A DNA stretch of 55,594 nt from an uncultured Methanosarcinales archaeon. GTDB taxonomy: Archaea; Nanobdellota; Nanobdellia; Woesearchaeales; GW2011-AR9. Position numbers and translations under genes: made by a program. The stretch is from positions 1 to 55,594 of the forward strand of contig CAYIEF010000004.1 of assembly GCA_964362365.1 (NCBI GenBank), written 5' to 3'. Shown here piece by piece: positions 2,177-55,594 of the stretch. Under the pieces are notes generated by a model. The model had not been told where the DNA came from. It made no database searches and worked only from the letters and a program-made list of their open reading frames with translations. Numbering within the stretch: the stretch's first letter is position 1; each line of letters begins with the position of its first letter.

Positions 2177-3376
2177 CTATTTTTGGGATTCAACTACTAA
2201 ATTTCCCCTCATGCCTCGCCAGTCTTCACAGCTGCCGCAAGTGTAGTCAAATGTTCCTGCTTTGTCAGCTACGAATTCTACTTCAGTCGTTCCGGAAACC
2301 TTCTTCTCTACGCCTAAAGAGGGAACTGCGAAGGTGAAATCTAATCCAGTGGGGACAACAGTTAATACAACTGTGCTTCCTTTCTTAACTCTAAGCACAT
2401 TCGGCTGGAAGACCCACTTCTTCGCGTTGAGGGTTAGCTTAACTGTTTCCCCTGCCGCTTCCATTGCCTCGGGTACTTTATTTGCTTCTTCTGGCTCTTC
2501 AGGAGTTTCTGGAGCAAGCTCAGGTTCGGTTGTTGTCTTTACTGGTTCTTCCTCAACCTTAGACGTCGAATCTGTTTCCTTTAATCCAGCTTCTCCTAAA
2601 AGGTTTTTATCCAAGCTTAACCCCTGCGGGAAAAACAACTTCCCGTCCTTGGTCACATAAGAATCAACAACTTGTCCGGCCACTCCCAAAGTTACCTTAT
2701 ATAATGTATCTAATTCTTCAGAAGATTGAACTTCTGCCTGAAAAGGTGGTTGAAGTAATTGAGTATTTACAAACTTCAAGACTTTTTGTTCTGCTTCCGG
2801 TAAAGTCATAGTAGCTGCAGCTGCTCCGGTAAGCGCATTCTTTTCAGAAAAATTAAAACCCTGCGTAAACAAGGATAAGACTAACAAGACCAGCGCGACT
2901 CCTGTCAATGCTTTCCATGTTGATGCTTCCTTAAATAACCCTGATTCTTTATTATCCTCTTCCCAAGGATTAACGGGGGAAGAAGTTTCTACTGCTGGTT
3001 TCGTTTCTTTTACACTTTCTTTTGCCGGTTTAATGTTCACCGTTATGGTTTCTTTCTTAGGCGCTTCAGAAACTTTTTTCTCCTTCTGCTCTTTTACCTC
3101 GGTCTTTTCAGTTGAGGAAGGTTTTTCTTTCTCTAGCGCAGTTTCTTTAGGTTTAACCGTAGCGTTTTTTTCACTCTTCTTAACTGCGCTCTTCTTAAAT
3201 GCCGTGGAACTTGTTTTTTTTGAAGGCTTGTGCAGCCGTAATGCTGTTGGCTGTTCTCGAAACTCAATTTTAATCTCCTGACTTTTAGGAGCGACTGGAG
3301 GAAGGTCCTCTAAATCTTCGATAAATTCCTCTCCAAAAAAAGAATCTTCCACTTCATCTAACTGTTTTTGTTCCAT
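2177..3376 (-). CDS. membrane protein: low-complexity N-terminus, TM, DsbC-N-like domain, C-terminal cupredoxin domain
   Basis: YVTKDGKLFF (DsbC dimerisation-like); KWVFQPNVLRVKKGSTVVL...F.ADKAGTFDYTCGSC...GMRG.LVV (cupredoxin). Confidence 0.65.
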   Translation of the reverse strand: MEQKQLDEVEDSFFGEEFIEDLEDLPPVAPKSQEIKIEFREQPTALRLHKPSKKTSSTAFKKSAVKKSEKNATVKPKETALEKEKPSSTEKTEVKEQKEKKVSEAPKKETITVNIKPAKESVKETKPAVETSSPVNPWEEDNKESGLFKEASTWKALTGVALVLLVLSLFTQGFNFSEKNALTGAAAATMTLPEAEQKVLKFVNTQLLQPPFQAEVQSSEELDTLYKVTLGVAGQVVDSYVTKDGKLFFPQGLSLDKNLLGEAGLKETDSTSKVEEEPVKTTTEPELAPETPEEPEEANKVPEAMEAAGETVKLTLNAKKWVFQPNVLRVKKGSTVVLTVVPTGLDFTFAVPSLGVEKKVSGTTEVEFVADKAGTFDYTCGSCEDWRGMRGNLVVESQK

Positions 3377-3599
3377 AACTTACATCACCCTATTATCTAA
3401 GATCCCTTGAAACGGGGATAAAAAGTTTATAAAGATTTATATGGTTGAAGAAATAGGTTAAGAAGGATATCGTTAAGAAAAACTATTTCTGTCGCACACC
3501 ACTTTGGTGCGTAAATAGAAAAAATATTCTCTTTATTAATTTTTATAACCGGAACTTCTACAAAATCTTAATAAAGCCAAACTATTTAATAGGTTAGAG

Positions 3600-10773: not shown

Positions 10774-12543
10774 CTAACTATAATACAAATTTCCTTCAGC
10801 CTTCTGCTCTCTGTCTTTCACAGAATCTAGCTTATTGATTCTTGGCCTATGTGAAGTAATATCCCTGCGCATAGTAATTCCCAAGCTCTTCAGAAATAAG
10901 TTCATCCCTTCTTCCATGGAAAGAGGCCCTTCCAAATGTCCTTCTCTTGCCGGTATACCGGAGAACACAATTAACCTATTGGAAATATAATCAAGGAACA
11001 TCAAATCGTGGTCCACCACTAAGATGGTTACATCCCTTTCCCAAGCGACGTTTTTGATGATTTTTGAAATCAATAACCGCTGTTCTATATCCAAGTAGGC
11101 TGAAGGCTCGTCCAGTAAAAACAAATTTGCATCTTGGGACAAGCAATGAGCAATGGCTACTCGCTGCAGCTGTCCTCCGGAAAGTTCCGATAATTTCTGG
11201 GTAAATAATTTTTCTACATCTAAAGGCCTAATCAATTGATGCTGGTATTTAGCTACTGCTTCATGCAACAATTCTCCAACCGTAATTTCTGAATCCGTTT
11301 CTAAATATTGCGGCTTGTATGATACTTTTACGTTTGTTCCAAGTTCTCCGGAGTCTGGCTTGACCAATCCTGCCAATATTTTGATGAAGGAAGTTTTTCC
11401 AATTCCATTTTCGCCTAGTATTCCTATGATCTCGCCTTTGTAGAGCGTTCCTTCTTTTGCAGTAAGGATAAAGTTACCTTGCTTTTTGCTAAGTTTACTC
11501 CAAGAAGTTAAAGAGATTTGAGAACCACTCTTAACGTCTTGTGCTTTTTCATATTTTATAGCATGATCACGGAAACGCACGTTCTCTTCTTTTAGATAAC
11601 CGTCTAGAAAGGCGTTTACTCCTTCACGTGCATTTTTCACTCCTGAAACAACCCCGAATGCTCCCTCATTTCCGTACATGATATTTACTAAGTCAGCCAT
11701 ATAATCAAAAATGATCAAATCGTGCTCAATGACCATGATGGCAGTTTCAGGTGCAGCTAAAGCTTCAATAAATTTGGATACTTTGATTCTTTGTTTGATA
11801 TCCAAATATGATGTTGGCTCATCAAAGAGGTATAAATTTGCCTTCTTCAATACTGCTGCAGCGATTGCTACTCTTTGCAGCTCTCCTCCAGAAATAGTTC
11901 CTATCTCGTTGTCAAGAACCTTGACGATATCCAGCTCCAGCGCCACTTTACTGAGCATGGAATTTGTATCAATTTTAGAAAGCAATTGCCGCACTGTTCC
12001 GGAAAATTGTTTTGGAATTAAATCAACTTGCTGAGGTTTGTATGACAGTGAAATTTCTCCTTTTCCTAATTTTTCTAAGAATTTCTGGGTTTCTGAACCT
12101 TTGAAATAACTAACAACCTGTTTGAAATCAGGAACCTTGGTCCAATCTCCTAAATTAGGTTTTATCATCCCTGACATAATCTTTAATGCCGTGGATTTAC
12201 CAATGCCATTTTTCCCTAAAATTCCAGTAACTTTCCCAAACATCGGTGAAGGCAATGAGTACAATTCAAACAGATTTTCACCATAGCGATGGAGTGGAGA
12301 TTTGTCTAAAGTAGTCGGCAGATTGATGATCTCGATCGCTCCAAAGGGGCATCGATTAGGACATATCCCGCATCCGGTGCAGAGCATCTCATCGATGCGT
12401 GCTTTCTTGTCCGGTTCGCCTGGATAGATGCAGTCCGCACCTGCACGATTGACAGGGCACAATTTAGCGCAAAGGTAGTTGCCGCACTCATTAGGATGGC
12501 ATTTGTCCCGGTGTATGATTGCTATACGTTTTCTGGTGCTCAT
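10774..12543 (-). CDS. rli: ribosome recycling/biogenesis factor ABCE1 (RLI)
   Basis: N-terminal 4Fe-4S Cys cluster, two ABC domains ([16 protein letters not shown]; [16 protein letters not shown]), RPRINKLDS. Confidence 0.97.
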
Positions 12544-12590
12544 GGTATTCTCTTTCTAAGCTTATTTTATATTCTTTGCGGTATAGAATT

Positions 12591-12959
12591 TTACTTCACA
12601 AACATTACATTTTGCAGATCTTTAAACTGCAAATCACCTGTTAGAAACAGAATTTTGCGTTCTTTCGCTGTTTGGTATCCAACACAATCGGCATATGATA
12701 ATTTTCTTTTCTTATGCTGCAGCCGAAAAATCATAGCTTCCTTAATAGTTTCTTTGCTTGGATCAACCATTAGGGGAAAGAGCGCATCCATGACTGCATC
12801 AGCTTTTTCCTTAGTGCTTTCGCTTAATACGGAGTAATAAATCTCCACTAGGTTGAACATGGTAAGAACGCCGGTATGGTCTTCAAAATACGAAACAAAA
12901 TGATGATTGTTTTTGATATATTCAATGATAGCATAACTATCATAAAAGAAAACAGTCAT
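12591..12959 (-). CDS. vapC: VapC PIN-domain toxin
   Basis: FFYDSYAIIE...LSYADCVGY...LFLTGDLQF. Confidence 0.9.
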   Translation of the reverse strand: MTVFFYDSYAIIEYIKNNHHFVSYFEDHTGVLTMFNLVEIYYSVLSESTKEKADAVMDALFPLMVDPSKETIKEAMIFRLQHKKRKLSYADCVGYQTAKERKILFLTGDLQFKDLQNVMFVK

Positions 12960-13168
12960 TCCCAGCCGGACCTCATTTCATCTTTAATTTCTTGCGCAGA
13001 TTTCTTGAATGAAACAAGACCCCTTAATTTTTTGAGATCAACAACTCTTTTAATTTCTATAATCACTTTTTGATTTTCATGCAAAAATTCTTCTTTGATA
13101 AGTTTTTTTGGAATAGCTATACCTAAAGAATTCCCCCATTTCCTAGTTTGGACTTCTATTTCAGTCAT
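12956..13168 (-). CDS. vapB: AbrB/MazE-type antitoxin
   Basis: TRKWGNSLGIAIPK; 4-bp overlap with vapC; start moved to MTEIE. Confidence 0.9.
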   Translation of the reverse strand: MTEIEVQTRKWGNSLGIAIPKKLIKEEFLHENQKVIIEIKRVVDLKKLRGLVSFKKSAQEIKDEMRSGWE

Positions 13169-13241
13169 TTGTTTAATTATAGTATAATTATATATAAACA
13201 TTTCGCAATAATTTTATAAAAAGCGACAATTCCGCATAACC

Positions 13242-13403
13242 ATGGCTAAATGCAGCATTTGCGGAAACAATATAGCGGAGTTGTTTTTAGAGAAGCTGAA
13301 GGGAACAGTAGTGCGAAAACCTGGCTCCAGCAAACAATATCCGGTTTGTTTCGAATGCCAGAAGAAGTTTCCAAGTAAAGAAGAATTACTGAAAAAGCTA
13401 TAA
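13242..13403 (+). CDS. small Zn-finger protein (53 aa)
   Basis: Manual translation MAKCSICGNNIAELFLEKLKGTVVRKPGSSKQYPVCFECQKKFPSKEELLKKL*; CxxC...CxxC. Confidence 0.75.
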   Translation: MAKCSICGNNIAELFLEKLKGTVVRKPGSSKQYPVCFECQKKFPSKEELLKKL

Positions 13404-13496
13404 ACTTCGCTCATGCCCTTATGGCTAAACGGCAAGTGTCACGCCACTTGAGAGGCGGGGCGACATGCGCTTCGCTAGTCACCTTAACGATACCAC

Positions 13497-51897: not shown

Positions 51898-52524
51898 ATG
51901 AGACAGAATGTCTTTCCTTCCATCATGGCTAAAAGCCAGCGGGAATTAGATGATATGCTGAAGAATCTTGTTGGAGTTGCCAAATACTTACACCTAGATG
52001 TCGCCGATGGAAAATTTGTTCCCAATACTTCGTTATGGTTTCCGTTTCGGTTAAATTCTAAATTTAAGTATGTTGCGCATTTAATGGTGAAAGAGCCGGA
52101 AAAGTGGATTACAAAGTATGGAAAGAGAATGGAATTTTGCATTGTGCAGGCAGAAACTGTTGATATTTTAAATTACATTACCAAAACAAAACAACAAAAA
52201 AAGAAAGTTGCTTTTGCCTTGAATCCGGAAACCAAGGTTTCTTCTTTAAAGAAATATTTAAAAGATATTGATTATGTTTTGATTTTAACTGTTCATCCAG
52301 GTTTTTATGGCGGAAAATATTTGAAATATCCGTTAAAGAAAATAAAAGAAATTAAGAACATAAATCCGAAAGTGAAAGTGATTGTTGACGGCGGGATGAA
52401 TCCTACCACGGTCAAAGACGCAGTTAGGGCTGGGGCAGATTATATTGTGGTTGGCTCGTATTTGGCGAAAGCTGATGATGTTAAGAAAAGGATGAAGGTG
52501 TTAGAGAAAAAGTTTGGGAAGTAA
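51898..52524 (+). CDS. rpe: ribulose-phosphate 3-epimerase
   Basis: PSIM, HLDVADGKFVPN, HLMV, LTVHPGFYG, VDGG, IVVGS. Confidence 0.95.
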   Translation: MRQNVFPSIMAKSQRELDDMLKNLVGVAKYLHLDVADGKFVPNTSLWFPFRLNSKFKYVAHLMVKEPEKWITKYGKRMEFCIVQAETVDILNYITKTKQQKKKVAFALNPETKVSSLKKYLKDIDYVLILTVHPGFYGGKYLKYPLKKIKEIKNINPKVKVIVDGGMNPTTVKDAVRAGADYIVVGSYLAKADDVKKRMKVLEKKFGK

Positions 52525-52703
52525 ATTGAATATAATAAATGTTATGTCCCCCCAGACTTTACGTCTGGGTGCGAACGTAGTGAGCAAGTTCGGTGTAGGG
52601 CACGTCCATAGTTTTACCTGATCAATTTAGGGCAAAAACACTTTTAGTTTTACAGTTAGTTAAAGGCTCTCTCTTTTTAGTTAAAGAAGAGAGGGGCAAT
52701 CTC
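52525..52703. repeat. site A of a cassette-boundary repeat family
   Basis: ATTGAATATAA-TAAATG-TTATGTCCCCC followed by a block shared with 53923-54108. Confidence 0.85.
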
Positions 52704-52717
52704 AAAAAGAAAAAGAA

Positions 52718-53056
52718 TTATGCTGGTATTTCTATCTTCTTGGTAAGAGAATGTTTTTTCAATTCCTCAATTATCAGCACGTCATATATTTCAATGAGTT
52801 TTTTTATTTTAGCGTTCTCTATGTTTAATTTGAAAAGTTTTGCTTTTCCCACGTCTCTCGTGTGAAGTATAATCTCGTTTTTGATTAAGTCGTCCCATAA
52901 TCTGTAAAGGGTTGCTCTACCAATTCCGGCATTTTCTGCCATGTCTGTTATGGAAAAATCTAGCTCTCGCTCTGTGATTAAATAGTCCATGACTTTCATC
53001 ATAGGAGAGTCCCCCATGAATTCCACAAATAATGATTTTTCTGCCATTACAATCAT
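52718..53056 (-). CDS. winged-HTH protein
   Basis: DSPMMKVMDYLI...FSITDMAENAGIGRATLY...KLFKLN. Confidence 0.8.
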   Translation of the reverse strand: MIVMAEKSLFVEFMGDSPMMKVMDYLITERELDFSITDMAENAGIGRATLYRLWDDLIKNEIILHTRDVGKAKLFKLNIENAKIKKLIEIYDVLIIEELKKHSLTKKIEIPA

Positions 53057-53161
53057 CTATTGGCTAGATATACTAACTACTATTTAAATATTCTTATTTT
53101 GAGACAACATTGTATCTTTGTTGAAAGGAACATTTATATTACTTTGGAAATTTGTTTTAGT

Positions 53162-53431
53162 ATGGGGCATTCAGTATTAGAGATAAAAGCGAGAATTATC
53201 AGAAAATTGGTGCAATGGAGAAAATGGGGTGGTTCTCATACAGAAAAGATTTTGGGTGGAATTCCAGGACACCTCCGAGGAGCCAAGATCACGAAGCAAG
53301 CATTAAAGGAATTAGTACAAGACGAGTGGTTACTTCCAGCGATCAAAACTGGAGAAACTCATTATTCACTTAATCCAAAAAAGACGGATGAAATTTTGCA
53401 GTTTTATGAGAAGTATTGTAAGAGGGATTAA
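53162..53431 (+). CDS. small basic hypothetical protein (wHTH-like), divergent partner
   Basis: KWGGSHT...KELV...L...KTGETHYSLNP. Confidence 0.65.
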   Translation: MGHSVLEIKARIIRKLVQWRKWGGSHTEKILGGIPGHLRGAKITKQALKELVQDEWLLPAIKTGETHYSLNPKKTDEILQFYEKYCKRD

Positions 53432-53501
53432 TTAAAAGTTACAATAAATTACTTTTCAGGAGTGAGAAAACTTTATATAGGAAAATTAACCTACTTATGA
53501 C

Positions 53502-53789
53502 ATGGATTGGAAAGAAATACTAAGGATATCTGCTGTAAGCGGATTAGTTTCATTTCTTCTCTGGGTATTATTAGGTATGTTTAATATGGTCGGAACTGGA
53601 GGAGACAACTTGTTTTTACCATTTCTATTTGCATTTGTAGCAGCGGGACTGGCATTAAATAGAAAATTAAAGAATGAATACTGGAAATTTCTTTTAGGAA
53701 TGTCCCTAGCTTCAGTGGTAGTATTGGTTTTATTGCTTGTCTTTTTTGGGTTGTATTTAGATTTCCTGTTTGAGCTTTTACCATTCTAA
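53502..53789 (+). CDS. small three-TM membrane protein
   Basis: 95-aa hydrophobic ORF. Confidence 0.6.
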   Translation: MDWKEILRISAVSGLVSFLLWVLLGMFNMVGTGGDNLFLPFLFAFVAAGLALNRKLKNEYWKFLLGMSLASVVVLVLLLVFFGLYLDFLFELLPF

Positions 53790-53807
53790 TTAAAGAAGAG
53801 AGTTGAT

Positions 53808-54108
53808 AGATTGCTCCTATTAGATTTTAGTTTTTCATTAAAGAGAGAGCCTACATTTAGTTTTACATAATTAGTTTTTGCCCTACATAAATTATTAGCA
53901 TCTTTAAAGTGCCAGAAACAGAATTGAATATAACACCGTTATGTCCCCCGGACTTTACGTCTGGGTGCGAACGTAGTGAGCAAGTTCGGTGTAGGGCACG
54001 TTCATAGTTTTACCATGTTCAGTTAAGGGCAAAAACACTTCTCAGTTTACGTTTTCGTTGGGGGGCTCTCTTGTTCTTTTGGTTTAAGAAGTAGTCGGGG
54101 GCAATCTC
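53808..54108. repeat. site B: about 300-bp imperfect palindrome centred on an arm-spacer-arm core
   Basis: ATTGAATATAA-CACCG-TTATGTCCCCC at 53923-53949; left flank matches 55408-55536, right flank matches 52541-52703. Confidence 0.85.
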
Positions 54109-54442
54109 AGTACTTAAATCGTTTTTCATACTCTTTATGATCAAACCATTCGAGGATAATATTCGCTATTCTCACTTCATCGCTTTCTATGATGTAAATT
54201 AATCTCCAGGCATTTGGAAGGTCATATTTCCAGAGGTTGGTTATGCCGTATTTCTGAACATATTCTTTTGGCCAAAGATTTTTTGGAATTTTGATTCCGC
54301 AGGTTGGATTTGCTTTGAGGTCGTCAATAGCCCTGTCAATAAATTTGTAGAGTTGTTTATCTTCAAATTTACCTTCTTTAAGGGCTTCCCACTCTTGTTT
54401 GAGTTTTGGCGTAATGAAAGCTACGTTGATTTGTTTGTTCAT
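54107..54442 (-). CDS. RelE/ParE-superfamily-like toxin
   Basis: IDRAIDDLKANPTCG...LWKYDLPNAWRLIY...ILEWFDHKEYEKRFKY. Confidence 0.7.
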   Translation of the reverse strand: MNKQINVAFITPKLKQEWEALKEGKFEDKQLYKFIDRAIDDLKANPTCGIKIPKNLWPKEYVQKYGITNLWKYDLPNAWRLIYIIESDEVRIANIILEWFDHKEYEKRFKY

Positions 54443-54705
54443 CGTACAATTAAGTCCTCTTTGATAAGTCTTTTTATTCTTTCCAGGTTAAAAGTCCAAA
54501 TAACGCATCCCTCTTGGTCTATAATTATTTTCCCGGATTGTTCAAGATAATCTAAAATAACTTGGAAAGTTTGGTACATCATCTTTTTCGGAAGTTTTTT
54601 CCATAATTGGTATTTGCCACATTCTTGGCTATGTTTTTGGATAGTTTCCTCTACCATAAAGACAGATTCTAATGTTGGGCTGTGTAAGACGGTTGCTTCT
54701 TGCAT
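54439..54705 (-). CDS. wHTH antitoxin-like protein
   Basis: HSPTLESVFMVEETI...QLWKKLPKKMMYQTFQVILDYL; 4-bp overlap with toxin. Confidence 0.65.
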   Translation of the reverse strand: MQEATVLHSPTLESVFMVEETIQKHSQECGKYQLWKKLPKKMMYQTFQVILDYLEQSGKIIIDQEGCVIWTFNLERIKRLIKEDLIVR

Positions 54706-54815
54706 ATTATATAAATATATATAAGAAGTTTATTTAAAGCTTTCGGCGATTTTTGAAAAATTTTTGGCAAATGTTTTTATATCGGTTTATGCTTTTGAAT
54801 AAAATGGTGAATAAA

Positions 54816-55388
54816 ATGGTAGAGGTATTAGTATATAAAACTGCTGAAGAAGCAAAGCAGGAATTAAAAAAACATGGTGAATATAATATTAAACGGAATG
54901 AAGAATTTAACGATGAATGGCATAAACATGACCGGAAAATTATTAGTGTGGCTAAACTAAATGAATTGGATGAAATAAAAAAACAAAGAAATCAGAAACG
55001 GTATTTTGTCGCAGAATTAACAGCTTTCCCTGATGAATATCTCTTTAATGCCTCATCCTTTCCTTTTGTGGGAGAAAATGGCTTCCACAAAGACATCTCT
55101 TCCTTGGTTCAAGGAGTAAAAGATACAATAAAAGGAAGAAATAATAATTATCCCAACATAGAGGTAATATTATACACTGTTCAAAACCATAAGGAAAATA
55201 ATCAAAAAAATAAAGAGGAAAGAGAAGCAATGGAAAAAATCTGTGTTAAACCAGAAGATATGACTGAGGATGTATTTAGTCGAATGAGAAAAGAATTATT
55301 TTTAGGGTATGGGTTAATGCACGGTGAAGCAAGATGCCTGAACCAACAGGAAAGAGAAGAATTTGTTAGATTATATCAGGAAAAATAG
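54816..55388 (+). CDS. hypothetical cargo protein
   Basis: MVEVLVYK...; GGTGA SD within a 12-bp tandem duplication upstream. Confidence 0.6.
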   Translation: MVEVLVYKTAEEAKQELKKHGEYNIKRNEEFNDEWHKHDRKIISVAKLNELDEIKKQRNQKRYFVAELTAFPDEYLFNASSFPFVGENGFHKDISSLVQGVKDTIKGRNNNYPNIEVILYTVQNHKENNQKNKEEREAMEKICVKPEDMTEDVFSRMRKELFLGYGLMHGEARCLNQQEREEFVRLYQEK

Positions 55389-55407
55389 TCTGTTCTGTGT
55401 TTCTGTA

Positions 55408-55552
55408 GAGATTGCCACCATTAAGTTTTATTTTTACATTAACGAGAGAGCCTACATTTAGTTTTACATAATTAGTTTTTGCCCTACATAAATTATCGTT
55501 AGTGATTCAGAGTGCCCGGAACCGAATTGGACATAACGATGTTAAGCTTGTT
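55408..55552. repeat. site C of the cassette-boundary repeat family
   Basis: ATTGGACATAA-CGATG-TTAAGCTTG; 53 bp identical to 53843-53895 at 55444-55496. Confidence 0.85.
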
Positions 55553-55594
55553 TTTGTGGATTTATGTCGAAGACAATAAAGGGAACAAAAACCG

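Follow-up and report, generated by a model that had tools for sequence, protein, structure and literature searches.

The 55,594-nt stretch of DNA analysed here, from a groundwater archaeon of the Woesearchaeales (the window; contig CAYIEF010000004.1 of assembly GCA_964362365.1, deposited as an uncultured Methanosarcinales archaeon) most likely represents the recombinase-distal end of a chromosomal array of gene cassettes, of a type that is widespread in Woese-, Pace- and Nanoarchaeota. The array begins directly behind rpe, the gene for ribulose-phosphate 3-epimerase, and consists of cassettes joined at short cores that resemble archaeal dif sites. It is likely, in our assessment, that this is an XerA-linked, integron-like cassette array of which the window holds the old, distal end, and taken together its features suggest an archaeal equivalent of bacterial integrons that has not been described before. 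A more specific proposal is advanced tentatively, and may well not hold: that the array is a third independent gene-capture machine, alongside integrons and Xer-exploiting phages, of the DPANN archaea, in which XerA doubles as the integrase and the site is a fold of the cassette ends, stacking in single-stranded DNA (ssDNA) into dif-like half-sites. A full-text literature search, with most subscription journals outside its coverage, brought up only the canonical archaeal integrons of Ghaly et al. 2022 and no description of Xer/dif-type cassette arrays.

Anatomy of the array

A preliminary description of the region, made from the sequence alone, had proposed three directly oriented cores, inverted blocks inside the ends of the segments between them, and an additional hairpin at the left ends. 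All of these are real. A degenerate core pattern matches the 55.6-kb window at 52525, 53923 and 55526 only, always on the plus strand, where shuffled sequences lead one to expect 0 matches; the stop codon of rpe (TAA) occupies 52522–52524 and the array starts, as had been described, at the very next base, 52525. The features of this region are as follows.

51898–52524, plus strand: rpe, ribulose-phosphate 3-epimerase (Pfam PF00834, E 3e-36), the conserved chromosomal left boundary of the array
52525–52549, plus strand: site A, with left arm ATTGAATATAA (chromosomal), spacer TAAATG and right arm TTATGTCC (start of cassette 1)
52536–53933, plus strand: cassette 1, 1398 nt, comprising spacer, left end, three genes and right end
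52542–52704, plus strand: left end of cassette 1, comprising an 8-nt arm, two hairpins and then a series of words
52551–52569: hairpin 1 of this left end, CCCAGAC-TTTAC-GTCTGGG
52572–52576 with 52588–52592: hairpin 2 of this left end, CGAAC with GTTCG
52598–52603, about 52628–52639, 52664–52673 and 52694–52704: words of this left end, GGGCAC, AGGGCAAAAAC, AGGCTCTCTC and GGGGCAATCTC, respectively
53808–53933, plus strand: right end of cassette 1, AGATTGC, GAGAGAGCCT, GTTTTTGCCCTA and GTGCC, then arm ATTGAATATAA
53923–53946, plus strand: site B, with arm ATTGAATATAA (end of cassette 1), spacer CACCG and arm TTATGTCC (start of cassette 2)
53934–55536, plus strand: cassette 2, 1603 nt, comprising spacer, left end, a toxin–antitoxin (TA) pair, a gene of 190 aa and right end
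53939–54110, plus strand: left end of cassette 2, of the same family as that of cassette 1
55409–55536, plus strand: right end of cassette 2, terminating in arm ATTGGACATAA
55526–55549, plus strand: site C, with arm ATTGGACATAA, spacer CGATG and arm TTAAGCTTG (start of cassette 3)
55537–55594, plus strand: start of cassette 3, the first 58 nt of a gene-less 176-nt cassette that is cut by the window end

The left ends of cassettes 1 and 2 display 88 % identity over 90 nt, and their right ends 91 % over 88 nt. Alignment of the left ends with the reverse-complemented right ends reveals the common blocks GTTATGT, CAAkTTCGG, GGGCAC, AGGGCAAAAAC, GGCTCTCTC and GGCAATCTC, which are spaced approximately 30–34 nt centre to centre and are separated by linkers that are unlike each other. 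The word GTTTTTGCCCTA occurs four times, in the inverted arrangement that had been claimed, against an expectation of 0.43. Confined to the left ends of the two cassettes is a 37-nt insert, which holds the hairpin CCCAGAC-TTTAY-GTCTGGG as well as a second small hairpin; in the copy at B an A>G change creates a G–T pair, with pairing thus kept.

Pairing between the ends of a cassette

The inverted blocks are partners within a cassette, left end to right end, and do not match one flank of a junction to the other. This emerged from 62 non-redundant cassettes, in which each 5′ arm was set against the 3′ arm of its cassette, the arm facing it over the same junction, and arms drawn at random. At the variable arm positions 4–8, complementarity to the cassette's own other end is 0.89, 0.92, 0.90, 0.77 and 0.84, respectively; within the same junction it is 0.50, 0.62, 0.62, 0.35 and 0.41, and for random pairs 0.50, 0.87, 0.60, 0.40 and 0.36. 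More than 15 distinct arm words contribute (GTCC, GCTT, GTGA, GTTG, GTGG, GCCT and others), and position 9, at which the left-end insert starts, is never paired. Beyond the arms, 53 of the 62 cassettes have extra inverted repeats between their own ends that exceed the 95th percentile of mismatched partners, and these are typically perfect 13–16-mers unique to the cassette. The left-end hairpin behaves similarly, with covariation at seven of seven pairs and 88 % of cells paired, a result equalled by 0 of 500 shuffles.

Given that inverse pairing of a cassette's own ends is general, the 'accessory blocks' of the window are a family-specific case of that rule. Their earlier interpretation as conserved accessory sites shared between cassettes does not survive, as other cassette families carry different words at the same end positions; a role as shared binding sites for accessory proteins was rejected on the same grounds. 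The preliminary description had also placed the crossover at the apex of a palindrome. This is an effect of the neighbours at B, where the junction resembles a 300-nt palindrome because cassettes 1 and 2 share a family; junction C has no such appearance. The junction palindrome was accordingly rejected as the functional unit, pairing lying within the cassette, and, as with attC, the crossover sits at the base of the cassette pairing, here with a 'loop' that contains the cargo.

Local folding is limited to gene-less cassettes. The 176-nt example adopts, as predicted for ssDNA, a multi-branch fold that is closed by its own arm pair (z approximately −3.6 on either strand), and in a single-strand fold of the whole of cassette 1 the end blocks pair mutually, a prediction that has no shuffle control for that length. 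The covariation of ends and hairpin argues for selection on base pairing, and the substrate is probably recognised, at least in part, as folded DNA.

dif-like cores and their distribution

The dif site employed in experiments with P. abyssi XerA is ATTGGATATAA-TCGGCC-TTATATCTAAA (PMC2958812), and the left arms ATTGGACATAA and ATTGAATATAA are identical to its arm ATTGGATATAA at 10 of 11 bases. Site A has an 11-6 geometry, sites B and C one of 11-5. The marks of an archaeal dif, namely two 11-nt inverted arms, a 6-nt spacer and similarity to known dif sites, are thereby found, with the right arm being symmetric to the left over 8 nt only. Judged by left arm and 11-5/6-8 geometry, the cores are archaeal dif-like sites.

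As a repeat, the design extends well beyond this locus, and was recovered from dozens of Woese-, Pace- and Nanoarchaeota contigs (L-numbers below are labels of contigs and loci fetched from metagenome-assembled genomes (MAGs) and metagenomes). Four MAGs, assigned to Pacearchaeota, Nanoarchaeota, Nanoarchaeia and, in one case, labelled Methanosarcinales, contain a 31-mer of the left-end insert without mismatch, and the same is true of a 27-mer in seven metagenome contigs; viral contigs yielded no copy of the module. The same left and right ends enclose elements of 1.6–2.7 kb in other MAGs and metagenome contigs. Neighbouring junctions in those contigs harbour other left-end types of the same layout, consisting of a core, a fixed distance and a 7-bp hairpin with loop TTTAY, and the sequence of the hairpin stem varies between types. 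A looser pattern yields many more DPANN arrays, of up to nine cores in a single direction. Arrays of five to nine cores are seen in L091, L132, L145 and L019, and one 13-kb contig contains cassettes throughout, as far as it was read. An Rfam scan at E ≤ 10 returned chance matches only.

In 83 distinct junctions drawn from many genomes, every spacer position agrees with CGATG in ≥ 90 % of cases. The observation in the preliminary description that all spacers differ is thus correct for the window and does not extend to the family: varied spacers are a peculiarity of this array, and CGATG is the family norm. Because of this, homology-independent exchange, which had been deduced from the differing spacers, cannot be inferred from them. 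Two breakpoints (at an interrupted relE gene and at recombinase-proximal sites, both detailed below) do, however, fall where the left arm meets the spacer.

Cassette turnover at conserved sites

In one relative, the first cassette after rpe differs from that of the window. Contig L083 shares the pfkB-fba-rpiB-rpe synteny of the window, with 78–85 % amino-acid identity across the four genes. Directly after the rpe stop codon it has the identical arm ATTGAATATAA, followed by CGATG and a different first cassette, which encodes a HicA/HicB-like pair (hicAB; assigned by eye). The cargo of the window likewise recurs in other contexts. Copies of the cassette 1 genes with 91 % amino-acid identity lie behind other genes in L009, and the TA pair of cassette 2 is found in other surroundings at 90–93 % identity in L010 and 79–92 % in L019.

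A solitary cassette of the same design interrupts a gene elsewhere in the window.

35743–36455, plus strand: solitary 713-nt cassette, with arm pair TTAGTTTC/GAAACTAA and right end ATTGAAACTAA, splitting a relE/parE-family toxin gene

When the two toxin halves are rejoined, they form an in-frame protein of 84 aa with an end-to-end ParE_toxin match (30.5 bits). The right breakpoint is resolved to within 2 nt and lies at the end of the left arm. At the left junction, 8 extra unexplained bases (CGTATGCG) stand ahead of a CGCTG spacer, and these are similar to the ATATGCG half seen at xer-proximal sites in relatives. No target-site duplication was found at A, B, C or the relE insertion.

In groundwater assemblies from Hainich, the rpe-proximal cassettes are the same across all assemblies compared. 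Logan contigs of four Hainich runs display repeat-inflated depth and alternative left contexts.

Linkage to XerA-type recombinase genes in relatives

In relatives, the arrays are linked to genes for XerA-type tyrosine recombinases. All four XerD matches within the pattern-fetched loci are situated 1–2 kb past the last core and on the same strand. The recombinases linked to arrays are 278–301 aa in length and contain Phage_integrase and SAM_4 domains; among known structures, they match XerA from T. acidophilum (5hxy, 3e-37) and from P. abyssi (4a8e, 1e-36) best, ahead of IntI4. For the recombinases of L090, L072 and L049, the NCBIfam XerA model NF040815 scores 205–236 bits (cut-off 220), and the integron-integrase model TIGR02249 scores 187–217 bits (cut-off 265). 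The latter match falls into two stretches, which indicates that the IntI-specific insert is absent.

A reciprocal search with the array-linked Xer proteins provided 80 loci. In approximately 20 DPANN xer loci the contig ends < 1.5 kb upstream of xer. Amongst those DPANN xer loci with at least 400 nt of upstream sequence, 24 of 40 possess the site ATTn5TAA-Yn5-WTAH 146–434 nt upstream of the gene and on the same strand, as against 2/40, 0/40 and 0/39 in controls. The right half of this xer-proximal site is often ATATGCGA, and its left arm shows the same kind of variation as the right ends of cassettes. Upstream of xer, 19 strict cores lie on the strand of the gene, compared with 0 on the opposite strand; for a relaxed motif, the corresponding counts are 27 versus 10 upstream, and 8 and 10 downstream.

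An identical Xer protein is encoded in four assemblies from Hainich H51 (L222–L225), with three different left contexts at the xer-proximal site: …ATTGAATTTAA/CTCATT, …ATTGAAACTAA/CTCATT and …GACGTGCTATA/CTCATT, where the stroke denotes the point of divergence, which is exactly the arm/spacer border. The rpe-proximal cassettes, by contrast, are constant across assemblies, and this is the polarity predicted by insertion at a recombinase-proximal primary site. No overlap was found that would link the contigs L222–L225 to the array of the window. In the same contigs, a tRNA-like sequence (…GGGTTCAAATCCCGTCGTGGGCG) lies approximately 100 nt upstream of xer, and a second core-like site, ATGCTCATAA-CTCTGAA-TTATGAAC, follows some 60 nt after the first; the xer-proximal region may accordingly contain a pair of sites with a hairpin between them, an arrangement also present in L049 and L090. 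A decayed platform was also encountered: L088 (flipped, 3050–3576) harbours an xer pseudogene reduced to its C-terminal 88 codons, directly after a KilA-N-like gene fragment, and belongs to the same MAG as the rpe-syntenic contig L083.

Proposed mechanism

From its 5′ side, a cassette comprises a spacer of 5–6 nt, an 8-nt arm TTAWGnnn, an insert of 40–50 nt with one or two hairpins, and cassette-specific inverted-repeat words; these are followed by the cargo (0–3 genes, on either strand and with their own promoters), the matching inverse words and an 11-nt arm ATTnnnCWTAA. Because cassettes abut, each junction takes the form arm(11)-spacer(5/6)-arm(8), which matches an archaeal dif in geometry and almost in sequence. 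The following scheme is proposed. An XerA-type tyrosine recombinase, whose gene presumably lies at the far end of the array, beyond a fixed dif-like site, would cut and exchange strands at the border of left arm and spacer, so that each cassette would own the spacer on its 5′ side. Cassettes would leave as circles and re-enter mainly at the recombinase-proximal site. The predicted circle junctions are ATTGAATATAA/TAAATGTTATGTCC for cassette 1 and ATTGGACATAA/CACCGTTATGTCC for cassette 2. Within a folded single strand, the paired cassette ends could rebuild duplex Xer half-sites, in the manner of an attC split open by cargo, and neighbouring stems, linked by the 5–6-nt spacer, would resemble a dif core whose centre is unpaired, much like folded attC or the CTX attP. 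We infer that XerA is the catalyst and that the array of this genome ends at an xerA gene.

Several observations weigh against this interpretation. No tyrosine recombinase was found in the 55.6-kb window, either with a motif regular expression or by tblastn, a weak negative since the E. coli XerD query was approximate; this is in line with the statement in the preliminary description that the window lacks a recombinase. Its characterisation of the locus as an integron-like or Xer-driven platform without canonical attC sites is borne out by the dif-like cores, by the recurrence of cassettes and by the XerA-type genes of relatives, but not by a recombinase from this genome. Neither cassette-skipping joints nor excised circles, the latter proposed earlier as a check, were found in Logan contigs of the four Hainich runs; such contigs drop rare variants, so that this does not speak for their absence. 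Sites A and B have atypical spacers, and the right arm of cassette 1 is an imperfect partner (6/11), which suggests decay at the distal end of the array. Only about one-third of the DPANN xer loci with a long upstream flank contain cores under the definitions used, and there are variants of the layout, such as L168. In that locus (11642–13457) five cores are located downstream of xer on the opposite strand, so that the array converges on the 3′ end of the gene. The search patterns that retrieved the loci included CGATG and TTTAY, although most cores in the arrays were not themselves bait. With regard to the fold, pairing of ends that are 1–4 kb apart in ssDNA is kinetically hard, and templated correction of the quasi-palindrome within circular or tandem forms could be an alternative source of the covariation.

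The genomes of DPANN archaea are tiny and the cells rely on hosts; their ways of acquiring and shuffling accessory genes are poorly understood. A widespread Xer-driven cassette platform would be a main route of gene flow in these organisms, and would also explain why DPANN assemblies break beside xer genes. Integron integrases are thought to derive from Xer-like recombinases. Plain XerA acting on dif-like cores and structure-defined cassettes would accordingly represent a living intermediate, or else a convergent solution, in the evolution of integrons, and capture by XerA on the basis of a fold, if true, would show integron-type structure-specific recombination arising directly from Xer/dif.

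Comparison with integrons and Xer-based systems

The likeness to integrons is considerable. Both have promiscuous cassette arrays in one direction, sites of a tyrosine recombinase that are set by pairing more than by sequence, a crossover at the base of the paired element, and TA cassettes as common cargo. The spacer travels with the downstream cassette, as does the TTRRRY of integrons, and in relatives a fixed site that may be the primary one lies beside the recombinase gene, with variability within populations being highest there. The conserved site upstream of xer, for which three left contexts exist in one population, would be the analogue of attI. Nevertheless, the recombinases of relatives are XerA-type enzymes without the IntI-specific insert, acting presumably at a dif-like 11-5/6-8 core, and their genes lie downstream of the array and point the same way, rather than diverging from it. 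The cargo resides inside the hairpin formed by the paired cassette ends, whereas in integrons it lies beside it. Whilst integron cassettes are mostly promoterless, co-oriented and driven by Pc, those described here have their own promoters and genes on both strands. The system is therefore integron-like in its working, yet it departs from integrons in their defining traits, namely an IntI domain (judged on relatives), attC and promoterless, co-oriented cassettes, and screening in the style of IntegronFinder, which looks for an IntI domain and fits to an attC model, would miss such arrays.

Integrative mobile elements exploiting Xer (IMEX) include CTX-phi, TLC-phi and VGJ-phi at Vibrio dif1 as well as the gonococcal genetic island; CTX, RS1 and TLC accumulate in tandem at Vibrio dif1, and CTX uses a folded single strand. 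It is conceivable, if rather unlikely, that the cassettes are independent selfish elements of this kind, which exploit housekeeping XerA and a chromosomal dif and pile up in tandem with no dedicated platform. The recombinase and chemistry would be the same as in the XerA-linked array proposed above, the difference being one of evolutionary reading only. Recombinase-less elements in tandem at a dif-type site are common to both, no recombinase having been found among the cassette genes examined (window cassettes and first loci), and so are hybrid junctions with an element-borne spacer, as would result from one strand exchange where arm and spacer meet. Dif-like cores, a terminal site beside xer that is 11-6-11, recombinases that score as XerA and not as IntI, and cassettes with their own promoters and addiction modules (TA pairs) would all be expected of such elements. 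Indeed, a dif directly beside its own xer gene is known from XerS/difSL and XerH/difH. Conversely, each IMEX is a phage, plasmid or island that brings genes for its replication or transfer and a single attP, whereas the units described here are cassettes of 0.18–4.6 kb in many-unit arrays, some of which exceed 13 kb. They contain no replication or transfer genes, some are without any gene, and their elaborate covarying ends form a scaffold that is common to unrelated cargos.

Two further Xer-based systems resemble the XerA-linked array in part. Modules of pdif type are flanked by inversely oriented sites (XerC/D and D/C), whilst all cores in the window and in related arrays are direct. The pdif or dif modules of Acinetobacter plasmids and chromosomes (PMC12907356) are similarly small and recombinase-less, with Xer-type 11-6-11 sites and accessory genes that include TA pairs. 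A clasp or hairpin scaffold is not known from pdif modules. The single-recombinase systems XerS/difSL and XerH/difH (PMC5357621) share with the 24 of 40 DPANN loci a dif-like site beside the recombinase gene, which in the DPANN loci lies 150–430 nt upstream, and the archaeal XerA/dif system shares with the window a closely similar arm sequence; that XerA is active without FtsK in vitro, and inverted repeats flank the dif of Thermococcales (PMC2958812). In all three, single sites serve the resolution of chromosome dimers, and cassette arrays are not described there.

An explanation without site-specific recombination, in which the repeats are structural or regulatory intergenic elements (terminators or insulators) of a variable island and genes are shuffled by homologous recombination between them, is very unlikely. 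The repeats do lie downstream of outward-facing genes, their conserved 90-nt ends could support exchange, and excision joints were not found. Such shuffling does not account for the relE insertion, which is without flanking homology, for the precise joining of cassettes of different families at a spacer of 5–6 nt, for breakpoints at the arm/spacer border beside xer, or for arrays that are tied to XerA-type genes with fixed polarity.

There is slightly less still to be said for a fragment of a canonical integron, that is, a cluster of attC sites lacking an integron-integrase (CALIN), with unusual attC sites and IntI elsewhere in the genome. Archaeal integrons, mostly CALINs, have been reported in Nanoarchaeota, where TA cassettes are common (Ghaly et al. 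2022, PMC9668308), and the array-linked recombinases do match TIGR02249. These matches, however, are below the cut-off and in two stretches, without the IntI-specific insert required by Ghaly et al., whose methods demand an attC model and an IntI domain (PMC9668308). The cores are dif-like, genes lie on both strands, and the 3′ ends of the cassettes have no local attC hairpin (R′′-L′′…L′-R′). Canonical attC was hence rejected: in place of a local hairpin of approximately 55–140 nt with a GTTRRRY crossover, the inverted partners are found at the two cassette ends, with the cargo between them, and adjacent arms form an 11-5/6-8 junction.

Weakest of all, and scarcely credible, is the notion of non-autonomous transposons with long terminal inverted repeats (miniature inverted-repeat transposable element (MITE)-like, or of other terminal-inverted-repeat type) mobilised by a DDE or other transposase elsewhere, which was rejected because, despite the inverted ends of every segment, an IS5-type transposase gene within one L006 cassette and one copy that interrupts a gene, no junction has a target-site duplication (which the preliminary description had named as a sign against a cassette platform), no transposase is linked to the arrays, the more than 15 end words would demand as many transposases, neighbouring cassettes meet head to tail, always in the same direction, across an asymmetric conserved spacer, and the chromosomal arm ATTGAATATAA is conserved in a relative.

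The array beyond the window end

The preliminary description took site C for the boundary of the array. Toxin-bearing contigs are present in several Hainich H51 groundwater assemblies, and whilst most end exactly at the window end, L015, from another assembly of the same sample, extends 1134 nt past it and continues the array with four or more further junctions, among them sites D, E and F. Within the first 350 nt past the window (reverse complement of L015), the gene-less 176-nt cassette (TTAAGCTTG…ATTAAGCTTAA) occurs twice in tandem, and it is this duplication that accounts for the assembly break at the window end. The additional features of L015 are as follows.

Site D: ATTAAGCTTAA-TCGCTG-TTAAGCTTG
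Site E: ATTAAGCTTAA-TTCCTG-TTAAGTGAGG
Cassette after site E: 516 nt, with one gene of 106 aa
Site F: ATTTCACTTAA-CGATG-TTATGTTTC, followed by a hairpin and the start of a further cassette

A Logan contig of run X5 contains a third junction, ATTAAGCTTAA-CGATG-TTAAGCTTG, which would be expected of a first-copy circle or of a differently spaced tandem. GC skew over the window tracks gene orientation and marks no terminus.

Cargo genes

The cargo corresponds to what had been described, with a weak helix-turn-helix protein, small proteins without family match and a ParE/YoeB-like toxin with an overlapping partner.

52718–53056, minus strand: cassette 1, 112 aa; weak helix-turn-helix matches (HTH_Tnp_1_2, HTH_7 and others), all below cut-off
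53099–53431, plus strand: cassette 1, 110 aa (or 89 aa from the ATG at 53162); no family match
53502–53789, plus strand: cassette 1, hydrophobic protein of 95 aa; no family match
54107–54442, minus strand: cassette 2, ParE/YoeB-like toxin of 111 aa; Pfam ParE_toxin 23.0 bits (at cut-off) and YoeB_toxin 22.2 bits
54439–54705, minus strand: cassette 2, putative antitoxin of 88 aa, with a 4-nt overlap with the toxin start
54816–55388, plus strand: cassette 2, 190 aa; no family match

Both cassettes thus contain divergent genes on both strands, with internal intergenic regions. Homologues of the toxin are present in many cassettes, and are accompanied by the antitoxin in L001, L002, L004, L006, L010, L013 and L019.

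Amongst the first fetched loci, the large open reading frames nearby encode AsnC and TrmB regulators, TruD, an IS5 transposase and a helicase, with no integrase among them, and the motif search likewise detected no recombinase in the early fetched loci. Double-wHTH AsnC-type regulators (approximately 325 aa) and TrmB-type regulators (approximately 250 aa) are recurrent cargo, as seen in L012/L019, L002 and L010. In L007 (6597–9509; the same as L003 and L008), a family-1 left end precedes a gene of > 970 aa with a P-loop, helicase-type GPPGTGKS motif; a cassette can therefore span several kb, although in this case the right end was not found within the locus. In L006 (5977–6900), the IS5-type transposase gene (DUF772 and DDE_Tnp_1) lies within a cassette beside a TA pair, and cassettes are evidently open to invasion by insertion sequences.

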